Shown piece after piece: positions 50,877 to 53,123 of a DNA stretch of 64,000 bases. The position numbers and the translations under genes are program-made. The stretch lies in the IMG/VR virus record IMGVR_UViG_3300027513_000014, positions 51 through 64,050 of that record; one strand, written 5' to 3'. Position 1 is the first letter of the stretch, and every line of letters starts with the position of its first letter. A model generated the notes under the pieces. It did not search any database. It was not told the DNA's origin and was given only the letters and a program-made list of their open reading frames with translations. This stretch comes from a virus.

Positions 50877-51587
50877 TTAACTACGACGAACGCCTACAAC
50901 TTGTGTCACAGAGAAGTTGACGCCCGGAGGGGGGTTACCGGTAACGGTAACAAAATCCGTGACAGCGGTTTTGTTGGCCCGCTTGTCGATCAGCTCGTAT
51001 TGCTTGCTTTCCAGGATGTAGTCCCAGAACGCGTTTGGATCAGCTACCGACGCTGATGTTCTGCGCGTGGCGTAGACCGTGCCTGAGTTCGTCCGGGCAG
51101 ACTCGACACCCAGGGAGTTGAGATGATTCAGCAACAAGCCGTTCAAGCCTTCAAGCGCGTCCTTGTAGGGCTTGATGGCTTCGTCGTGGGCCTTCTCCAT
51201 GTCTCGGATTTTGTCCCGGATTTGCACGTATTGATCTACGCGCTGGTCGATTGTCTTCGGTGCAGGTGTGGGTGCATTCATGGTCTTTTCCTTCTTTGAT
51301 GTTAACGCGTATACTCTCCGCATTCGTCCATTTTGCAGTCGTTTTCCGCCGGTATAATATAACCACCCTTTCTCTACCAGCTCGGGCACACGGCTACGGT
51401 AGGTGCTGCGATGGTCGTTATAAAAATTCTCCAGATCGAGCTGCGTAGCATTCGGCACTGTGCAAAAGAAGTTGATCACTTCCTGATGTAAGATTCTTAG
51501 CCGCTCCGAATCAATATGTTCTGCGGCTTCCCGGCTGGTGTCGGGATCACTTCGCCGGTAACGATGGTGGGTATCGAAATCAGTCAT
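50877..51587 (-). CDS. Winged-HTH domain fused in frame to a conserved coiled-coil phage protein
   Basis: N-part RRSDPDTSREAA...RSRVPELVEKG; second ATG with RBS at 51281 (MNAPTPAPKTIDQRVDQYVQIRDK). Confidence 0.65.
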   Translation of the reverse strand: MTDFDTHHRYRRSDPDTSREAAEHIDSERLRILHQEVINFFCTVPNATQLDLENFYNDHRSTYRSRVPELVEKGWLYYTGGKRLQNGRMRRVYALTSKKEKTMNAPTPAPKTIDQRVDQYVQIRDKIRDMEKAHDEAIKPYKDALEGLNGLLLNHLNSLGVESARTNSGTVYATRRTSASVADPNAFWDYILESKQYELIDKRANKTAVTDFVTVTGNPPPGVNFSVTQVVGVRRS

Positions 51588-51805
51588 CGCTCTGTGTACT
51601 TGGTACTCTCATTGACTCTGGCTCGCTCCATCCTAATGGCGCTCTCCAAAGGCGTGGCTCGCTCTTCGCAGATGGTTCCCTCGGTAGACATGGCTCGCTC
51701 TGCAAGCATTGGTTTTCTCAACTGGCTTGGCTCGCTCATCATTTAGTGGTTCTCTCTTATGATTTGGCTCGCTCGACGGAACTGGTACTCTCAACCATGT
51801 TGGCT
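51587..51805 (-). repeat. TIGR-like dual-spacer array, downstream of the Nop-domain gene (6 units)
   Basis: Minus strand alternates GAGCGAGCCA and GAGAGWACCA-type 10-mers with unique 8-9-nt spacers, period 36-37 nt; begins AGCCA and ends GAGCG. Confidence 0.92.
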
Positions 51806-52599
51806 TATATCTTATGCACATGCCCCATATGTACAATAGGGTAAGGCAACGGAGGAGCTATCCCGAACTTCTGTTTGAACATCTCTTCGTGCAGATGCGC
51901 GAGAAACAGCTTCACAGCATATCGCCGCGCACGCGCATGGATGTGAGCCGGACTTAATTTCCCACCGGAATAGTGCTTGAACGCATCAGTGTTTTTATCG
52001 AACTTCTTAAGCTTCAACGCTTCCGCAGCCTGAGTCGCGAAGAATCCAGCATCGTTGCGTTGAATTTCCAACTCCTTGCGCTTCTTGTAAAGCTCCCCAT
52101 AGAAACAGCTGGGGCGGTTACAGTTCTTCACGAACGACTCACCAGCTTTCCAGCAAAGCGTTTTCAGCATTGCATTATGGGGCCGCTTCTTGCCCTTGTC
52201 CCACTTGCGCGTAGGGTCAAGGCCAGCAAACGCCCAGATGTGCCCCACGGTAGGTGCCTTAGTGATGTCGATGTGCGCCAGCAAACCGGCGCTGATAACC
52301 GGCCCGATGCCGACGATACCGATCAACCATTTGCCCACTGGATGCGCCTCCACGTAAGACTGCAGCGCGCGTTTCGTCTGGTTCTCCAGTTCTTCCGACT
52401 GTGAAGTCAGATGTTCCAGCGTCTCGTGCGGCTCCGTGGGCATGGAACGCACCTGACCGGCAGCACGGATGCGCTGACGCTGCATTTGGTAGTAATTATC
52501 TACTAGGAATCTCGCCTGCGCGGCAGTCATGGTGGCAGCGGCTTTGCGTAGATCGCGGGTGAGTTTTGCTACGCTAACCCAGGTGTCCTCGATTTCCAT
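51805..52599 (-). CDS. tasA: Nop-domain (IS110 C-terminal-like) RNA-binding protein without a nuclease domain, TasA-like
   Basis: Coiled coil followed by WLIGIVGIGPVISAGLLAHIDI...IWAFAGLDP...HNAMLKTLCW...FYGELY...HARARRYAVKLFL; no N-terminal DEDD RuvC; flanked by 36-nt arrays; start at 52599 after AAGGGAG. Confidence 0.8.
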   Translation of the reverse strand: MEIEDTWVSVAKLTRDLRKAAATMTAAQARFLVDNYYQMQRQRIRAAGQVRSMPTEPHETLEHLTSQSEELENQTKRALQSYVEAHPVGKWLIGIVGIGPVISAGLLAHIDITKAPTVGHIWAFAGLDPTRKWDKGKKRPHNAMLKTLCWKAGESFVKNCNRPSCFYGELYKKRKELEIQRNDAGFFATQAAEALKLKKFDKNTDAFKHYSGGKLSPAHIHARARRYAVKLFLAHLHEEMFKQKFGIAPPLPYPIVHMGHVHKI

Positions 52600-52604
52600 T
52601 TTAA

Positions 52605-52788
52605 GCACTCCCTTGGATTGGTACTCTCAGAATGGTTTGGTTCGCTCCCCGTTTTTGGTTCTCTCGCTTGGAGTGGCTCGCTCGGAGCTTTTGGTACTCT
52701 CGAAGGGCTTGGCTCGCTCGGCCTCGTTTGGTACTCTCAGTCTCATTGGCTCGCTCGTTGCGTCAGGTTCTCTCAGCATCGCTGGCTC
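52605..52788 (-). repeat. TIGR-like dual-spacer array, upstream of the Nop-domain gene (5 units)
   Basis: Same two alternating repeats and 8-9-nt spacers as the downstream array. Confidence 0.92.
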
Positions 52789-52796
52789 GTTACCAT

Positions 52797-53123
52797 TTAC
52801 GGTAACTCGGTTCGTTCACCCACAATCCATGACATATGCGTATTACCCTTGTGCTGTGCGATCTGCAGTAGGAGATTGTAACCGCAATTTTCGCACCAAA
52901 AATTAATTGACAGCCCATCACGTCTGCTGCTTGGATTGCCGCAATCGTATGACGTAGCCATGCTCACATTCACCTCGTTATCGATGCGAACCACACGTGT
53001 CATAGGGTTATCTTCCGGCCTGTCGAAGACAGTTACACGTTCATGGTGCAAGTAGTTATTATCGCAACGTGGACAGATTAGCTCGTTATCTTTCAGTCGC
53101 ACATTTGCATCTACCATCGTCAT
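52797..53123 (-). CDS. Hypothetical Cys-containing protein
   Basis: CPRC...CENC; start overlaps the helicase stop. Confidence 0.65.
   Translation of the reverse strand: MTMVDANVRLKDNELICPRCDNNYLHHERVTVFDRPEDNPMTRVVRIDNEVNVSMATSYDCGNPSSRRDGLSINFWCENCGYNLLLQIAQHKGNTHMSWIVGERTELP

Follow-up and report, generated by a model that had tools for sequence, protein, structure and literature searches.

A dual-repeat TIGR-TasA cassette in a phage replication operon, predicted to bind DNA without cutting it

The stretch of DNA considered here (the window) comprises 64,000 nucleotides (nt), positions 51 to 64,050, of the IMG/VR virus record IMGVR_UViG_3300027513_000014, and covers nearly all of that 64,487-bp single-contig record (genome coordinates are window coordinates plus 50). 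On its minus strand, an open reading frame (ORF) of 264 amino acids (aa) at 52599..51805 has a block of short periodic repeats on either side. Gene and repeats together are a genuine tandem interspaced guide RNA (TIGR) system with the effector TasA, and belong to a class, TIGR-Tas, which matters for its compact RNA-guided DNA binders that are free of a protospacer-adjacent motif (PAM). Sequence, structural models and analogy with characterised relatives make it very probable that the locus is a dual-repeat TIGR-TasA accessory cassette in the replication operon of a tailed phage, and that it acts by binding DNA without cutting it.

Two arrays of paired spacers around one gene

TIGR arrays consist of two alternating repeats of 8-12 nt, edge and loop, around spacer pairs of ~9 nt (8-9 nt, rarely up to 12 nt), in units of about 36 nt, with box C (CCA) terminating both repeat types; they lie upstream and/or downstream of tas, have truncated edge repeats at start and end, and are processed to 36-nt tigRNAs, the commonest effector being the solo-Nop protein TasA (Faure et al., 2025, PMC12045711). 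A later study, which annotated 6,685 arrays, also describes tas genes with an array on either side (Xu et al., 2026, bioRxiv 10.64898/2026.09.09.750476). In the window, parsing the minus strand with a regular expression resolves the two blocks into 11 units that read, in order, AGCCA, spacer A (8-9 nt), a 10-nt loop resembling GAGAGWACCA, spacer B (8-9 nt) and GAGCG, with edge and loop repeats both 10 nt long and all 22 spacers distinct across both arrays. Unit length is 36 nt in seven cases and 37 nt in four, the latter because one spacer in each has 9 rather than 8 nt. The upstream array (52606..52787, minus strand), delimited by the parse, by motif statistics and by the published architecture, holds five tigRNA units, which run 5' to 3' at 52787-52752 (36 nt), 52751-52715 (37), 52714-52679 (36), 52678-52643 (36 nt) and 52642-52606 (37). 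The downstream array (51588..51805, minus strand) holds six, at 51805-51770 (36 nt), 51769-51733 (37), 51732-51696 (37), 51695-51660 (36 nt), 51659-51624 (36) and 51623-51588 (36). Both repeats at this locus take the form GAG.....CCA, with GAG as box D and CCA as box C, and truncated edge repeats stand at both ends of both arrays. Unit 1 deviates in a loop that ends CCT, unit 5 in an AACCA opening and a GAGTG close, and three downstream units have the variant loops GAGAAAACCA, GAGGGAACCA and GAGAGCGCCA.

The 64-kb window contains 21 copies of the degenerate 10-mer GAGNGNNCCA; shuffles average 9.3 +/- 3.3, and none of 100 reached 21. Of the 21 copies, 18 fall inside the two arrays, all on the minus strand and at 18-19-nt spacing. 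Tandem Repeats Finder detects part of the upstream array only, at period 36, because half of each unit is variable, and a search of Rfam gave no match. A CRISPR array, in which one repeat of 25-36 nt alternates with single spacers of similar size, was ruled out, since two different 10-nt repeats alternate here with spacers of 8-9 nt. The arrays also interlock with the coding sequences. A Shine-Dalgarno-like AAGGGAG, the predicted ribosome-binding site of tasA (52608..52614, minus strand, 8 nt 5' of the ATG at 52599), arises in the last upstream unit where spacer B ends and the truncated edge begins; the first downstream AGCCA overlaps the tasA stop codon (TAAGCCA); and the last downstream GAGCG adjoins the ATG of the next gene.

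Among 15 related loci (TasA 40-95% identical) drawn from IMG/VR, JGI, ENA, Logan and one alphaproteobacterial metagenome-assembled genome, 14 clearly carry the same array type, usually with 20-70 units, the exception being L005, which its short runs and its offset edge repeat leave equivocal. Box C co-varies between the two repeats at such loci, being CCG in both edge and loop at L003, L005, L006 and L008 and CCA in both at L002, L007, L010 and L011, as would be expected if a symmetric protein dimer bound them. Similar arrays are known from a characterised system, the SpTIGR-TasH of Salicola phage CGphi29 (PDB 9W03, 9W04, 21KL), likewise built of 36-nt dual-repeat units, whose record reads as edge (A/G)AGCGAGCCA, loop AAGACAACCA and 8-nt spacers, its edge repeat being identical to that of the window at 9 of 10 positions and its loop at 7 of 10. 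Mature SpTasH tigRNA5 consists of AGCCA, 8 nt, AAGACAACCA, 8 nt and AAGCG, and TaTasR tigRNA1 likewise begins AGCCA (Faure et al., 2025, Table S3, PMC12045711). The SpTasH guide thus starts AGCCA and ends AGCG, and those of the window are predicted to run from AGCCA to GAGCG over 36 nt. The two loci differ in layout, as the Salicola phage has an array on the downstream side alone, closed by a terminator, whereas here arrays occupy both sides and no terminator follows; box D, moreover, is GAG here, AAG in SpTIGR and UG in TasR arrays.

The original prediction, made from the letters and a list of ORFs alone, had counted five units before and six after the gene, seven of 36 and four of 37 nt, with 22 different spacers, and the parse agrees. 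It had also taken GAGCG|AGCCA for the edge repeat and probable processing site and GAGAGWACCA for the loop, an assignment borne out by the ends of the published SpTasH tigRNA5, and the 14 loci just mentioned accord with its expectation that homologous genes in related phages should carry such arrays. Its suggestion that the two-sided layout and these repeats might represent an uncharacterised variant did not hold, given that two-sided arrays had been described, that the repeats closely match those of the Salicola phage and that the gene itself is catalogued (see below).

The TasA protein and its kin

The gene tasA (51805..52599, minus strand) is predicted to encode a 264-aa solo-Nop TIGR-associated protein made of a coiled coil and a Nop domain, and includes the peptides GIGPVISAGLL, AFAGLDP and HARARR, quoted in the original prediction. 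Its best sequence matches in the PDB are TasR (9mty, 1.8e-14) and TasH (1.7e-12) by phmmer, with IS621 at only 0.17. Pfam returned a weak match to Transposase_20 (PF02371, 6.8e-5) and no nuclease family, and PHROGs a strong one to phrog_4285 ("transposase", 4.6e-49). A single-sequence AlphaFold model was discarded for its low mean confidence (pLDDT 39); an AlphaFold2 model built on an alignment of 40 homologues reached pLDDT 91 and a predicted template modelling score (pTM) of 0.86. With the latter, TasH and TasR chains take up all of Foldseek ranks 1-11 against the PDB (probability 1.0, TM 0.53-0.71), followed by IS621 and ISCro4 (TM about 0.5), so that the Nop/Tas fold anticipated from the sequence was recovered. 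The model opens almost directly on a pair of long coiled-coil helices; a gap falls opposite the HNH region of SpTasH with its catalytic H54; and KGK stands at the position of the Ser-Gly (SGS) of IS621. Because of these three features the protein is assigned, on sequence and model, as a solo-Nop TasA with neither an HNH nor a RuvC domain, in keeping with the Nop-domain TasA devoid of nuclease, DEDD RuvC and Ser-Gly that had been proposed.

Residues with known roles in SpTasH, whose numbering was checked against the published papers, map onto the protein as W150/K158 for the unwinding-junction pair W203/K211 and as Y253/H260 for Y289/H296, which carry out metal-independent processing of pre-tigRNA. 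The last two are kept in 37 (Y253) and 38 (H260) of the 40 homologues, and a C-terminal Y/H loop is typical of dual-repeat systems (Xu et al., 2026, 10.64898/2026.09.09.750476). Public labels for the family are misleading, namely Transposase_20 in Pfam, 'transposase, integration and excision' for PHROG 4285 and 'transposase IS116/IS110/IS902' in IMG. One relative, the 40% identical TasA at L008:3001-3918, has a Cys/His-rich insertion of ~40 aa in its Nop domain after the GIGPV...LLAHI helix, and matches in two separate stretches indicate an insertion near query residue 137 in many family members.

Set beside characterised systems, the protein shares with SpTasH the Nop domain, which is its best structural match, and the W/K junction and Y/H processing pairs, and differs from it in lacking the N-terminal HNH nuclease by which SpTasH cuts DNA, protein identity being only ~24%. 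The dual-repeat TIGR-TasA systems exemplified by FpTasA of Flavonifractor plautii and by MbTasA are similar in having a nuclease-free solo-Nop effector, 36-nt dual-spacer guides and arrays upstream and/or downstream, but belong to a different clade and have a total guide length of 18 nt rather than the 16-17 nt seen here; the present member, which the published catalogue places in this family, sits moreover in a phage replication operon. Common to TaTIGR-TasR of a Thermoproteota archaeon (PDB 9MTY) and this locus are the Nop fold, the coiled-coil dimer, the AGCCA guide start, the CCA of box C and a target composed of spacer A and the reverse complement of spacer B, whereas an active RuvC domain, 9-nt spacers and a UG box D set TaTIGR-TasR apart from the GAG repeat starts and RuvC-less effector described here. 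Similarity to IS110/IS621 is confined to a homologous RNA-binding C-terminal (Transposase_20 or Nop-like) domain and a guide RNA in two segments; TasA here is without the DEDD RuvC domain and the catalytic Ser, is served by many short guides instead of one bridge RNA, and is not mobile by the IS110 mechanism. Nuclease-free CRISPR systems (type IV, type V-M, Cas12k) offer a parallel in function, as they act by RNA-guided DNA binding that blocks transcription or replication of a target, the way of working proposed here, and also reside on mobile elements, but their proteins are unrelated, a single long spacer pairs with one strand, and they depend on a PAM.

Proposed working, targets and rival readings

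We propose that both arrays are transcribed together with tasA and its neighbours on a long minus-strand transcript, and that TasA would cut each full edge repeat between GAGCG and AGCCA through its C-terminal Tyr253/His260, as homology with SpTasH suggests, releasing up to 11 guides of 36-37 nt. Each guide would lead a TasA dimer to a 16-17-bp DNA site formed by spacer A and the reverse complement of spacer B. This geometry is adopted because the guide and target oligonucleotides of TaTasR read so, the optimised target strand being spacer A followed by the reverse complement of spacer B (Faure et al., 2025, Table S3, PMC12045711), and it agrees with the 8-nt 3' overhangs. Bound there, the complex would bend the DNA and block transcription or replication rather than cut, since TasA is without a nuclease domain; MbTasA binds target DNA and represses transcription reversibly (Xu et al., 2026, 10.64898/2026.09.09.750476). 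As the units overlap the tasA Shine-Dalgarno sequence and stop codon and reach the next ATG, processing of the edge repeats would also sever the operon transcript on both sides of tasA, and TasA, when sitting on the last upstream unit, could mask the ribosome-binding site of its own gene.

Targets of 16-17 bp with the published geometry were sought for the 11 guides. In the phage's own genome they match no more often than mismatched spacer pairs do; Rhizobium phage RHph_TM27A and four complete related IMG/VR phages (G001-G004) have no match at one mismatch or fewer, and matches at two mismatches in these five genomes equal the wrong-geometry control. A scan of IMG/VR, a collection of a size in which 16-mers are uninformative, gave for the 17-bp target of unit D3 eight contigs in five unrelated sequence families. 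With no target in the phage itself or in the five related phages, these 11 guides most likely serve to silence genes of the host or competing mobile elements of unrelated origin.

Several points weigh against the proposed working. Not one of the 11 guides has a target in the genomes searched, the D3 matches being estimated at about chance level. At five plus six units the arrays are short next to the 20-70 of relatives, and some units may be inactive, because a 9-nt spacer occurs in four of the 11 and several repeats are slightly degenerate. Typical arrays, unlike the downstream one here, are followed by a terminator, and expression, processing and DNA binding at this locus are predictions from sequence and models.

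Part of this evidence could instead be taken to mean that the cassette is a decaying remnant, in which the protein may still fold while short, degenerate arrays yield no functional guides. Besides the low unit number, the CCT box C of unit 1 and the several loop variants, the 9-nt spacer at four of 11 units, compared with roughly 10% in relatives, would fit such a history. Yet the ORF is intact and 95% identical to that of a relative, every residue tested is conserved (W150, K158, Y253, H260 and the invariant G and R positions), similar repeat variants occur within relatives' long arrays, and an identical protein is encoded on a contig from a second, independent metagenome, all of which makes decay improbable. 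Far less credible still, and in our judgement almost certainly wrong, is the identity implied by the automatic labels, an IS110-family insertion sequence or its remnant. The Pfam and PHROGs matches and the structural similarity to IS621 and ISCro4 given above speak for it, but the N-terminal DEDD/RuvC domain and the Ser-Gly catalytic loop are missing, there is no single two-loop RNA resembling a bridge RNA, regular dual-spacer arrays flank the gene, and TasH and TasR surpass IS621 by a wide margin both in sequence (1e-12 to 1e-14 versus 0.17) and in fold.

A third alternative keeps the TIGR-TasA machinery and changes its job to competition among sibling phages, with guides that hit cis-acting sites of rivals, notably dispersed junction palindromes, many at once. 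It arises from ~390 in-phase guides parsed from related loci, exactly one of which has matches in related phages. This guide, at L010:1858-1900 (a locus whose TasA is 95% identical), has the spacers TTACCTCC and TTACCTTT and predicts the target TTACCTCCAAAGGTAA, which occurs at 14 perfect and 41 one-mismatch sites in the five genomes G001-G004 (sequences L083-L097) and RHph_TM27A (L001, L013 and L014), with two perfect and two one-mismatch sites more in the 12.8-kb L011 locus. Such matches arise only with the published geometry, out-of-phase spacer pairs and wrong geometry giving isolated one-mismatch matches only. The target is the core of a dispersed palindrome, (G)TTACC-N6-GGTAA(C), and about half of its sites lie within 25 nt of a gene end, positions that make up 12-21% of those genomes. 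The window has its own form of the palindrome, GTTAC-N8-GTAAC, at 29 exact and eight one-mismatch sites (37 in all, between 570 and 63294, for example at 20336, 25498, 32044 and 52789), many of which take up the short gap that separates a stop codon from the following start; related phages have the same frame with other inner bases (exact sites: 20 in TM27A, 16 in G003 and 13 in G001), and its function could be that of a protein-binding site or of an RNA hairpin at cistron junctions. One copy (52789..52806, no strand assigned) overlaps the stop codon of the gene upstream of the cassette. It stops 1 nt short of the opening AGCCA of the upstream array, as does its counterpart at L010:112-129.

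The palindrome visible in the L010 phage itself is of the CGG type, as in the window, and differs from the guide target at 4 of 16 positions, so that the guide would spare its bearer and looks aimed at sibling phages. From this we tentatively entertain, while thinking it unlikely, that TIGR-TasA serves sibling competition; that in this phage group it is a weapon between siblings with a preference for rivals' TTACC-N6-GGTAA junction palindromes is the more specific claim and a shade less likely again. Inner bases that differ between sub-lineages would then allow discrimination of self from non-self, a single guide would obstruct a rival genome at 10-20 sites, the window phage with its 37 own-type palindromes would be both bearer and potential victim, and a TasA system would for the first time have a known natural target and a biological role. 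Against this, the case comes from one guide among ~390, no other exceeding the out-of-phase control in these genomes; none of the window's 11 guides is of that kind or matches any relative; and pattern scans of IMG/VR and the JGI metagenomes found no other TTAC/TTAC guides, nor any guide against the phage's own commonest palindrome.

Genomic setting, relatives and catalogue status

The cassette, predicted to bind DNA without cutting it, lies inside a replication operon, where the original prediction had placed it, and is co-oriented with its neighbours. An SNF2 helicase gene (53120..54688) precedes the gene of a 108-aa Cys-rich protein with no family match (52797..53123, minus strand), which stands immediately upstream. 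On the other side follow a 236-aa protein (50877..51587, minus strand; phrog_1123 in its N-terminal part, DUF7307 / phrog_13900 in its C-terminal part), a 375-aa protein and a DUF927 primase-helicase. Neither promoter-like nor terminator-like sites were found bordering the arrays, and no ParB-like partner (tasParB) is present among the neighbour genes. The nearest named phages are the Rhizobium phages RHph_TM27A/B, TM29 and TM3_14A (portal 66%, primase 38% identity), which have the same order of SNF2 helicase, small ORFs, 236-aa and 375-aa homologues and primase, and no tasA. The same junction between the SNF2 and 236-aa genes is occupied by a cassette in L010, L100 and the distant L008; at L011:5488-7270 it precedes a DNA polymerase gene (polA) instead, and it is absent from the complete relative G001 and from RHph_TM27A. 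This variable presence and position mark it as an accessory cassette within a conserved replication module, and suggest that TIGR and tasA move or are lost as a unit. No near DNA match to the phage was found in the phage collection, nor any prophage relative of its portal protein in 185,579 genomes, and the tail proteins point only vaguely to Alphaproteobacteria as host.

Table S1 of Faure et al. (2025) has two entries with an identical 264-aa protein, one of them IMG_3300027513, scaffold Ga0208685_1000033, 51854_52649, minus strand, which is exactly this gene, and the other from a scaffold of metagenome 3300009609. The virus record is a contig of metagenomic origin, and its tas gene, by protein identity and matching coordinates, belongs to the published set given to TIGRFinder. 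The family is large, with 5,759 matches in 90% clusters; among 50% clusters, 3,295 representatives match, and 1,336 of these do so below 1e-30. The family, two-sided arrays, self-processing, TasA-mediated repression and this very gene being already published, the locus adds nothing to the significance of the class. Its uses are more modest. It is a clean, small and complete example (11 guides and a 264-aa effector) in a phage genome that is itself complete and has recognisable relatives devoid of the cassette. Comparison with related loci also gave one lead on natural TasA targets, the L010 guide against the junction palindrome.

None of the 11 guides is shared with relatives, even with L010, and in view of the 95% identity of the two TasA proteins guide content must turn over much faster than the protein. 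In the long array at L002:4058-4933, blocks of consecutive guides are repeated, for example the GAAAATTA/CAGATAAG and ACACACTT/TGATCGCC units, from which it appears that arrays also grow by segmental duplication.

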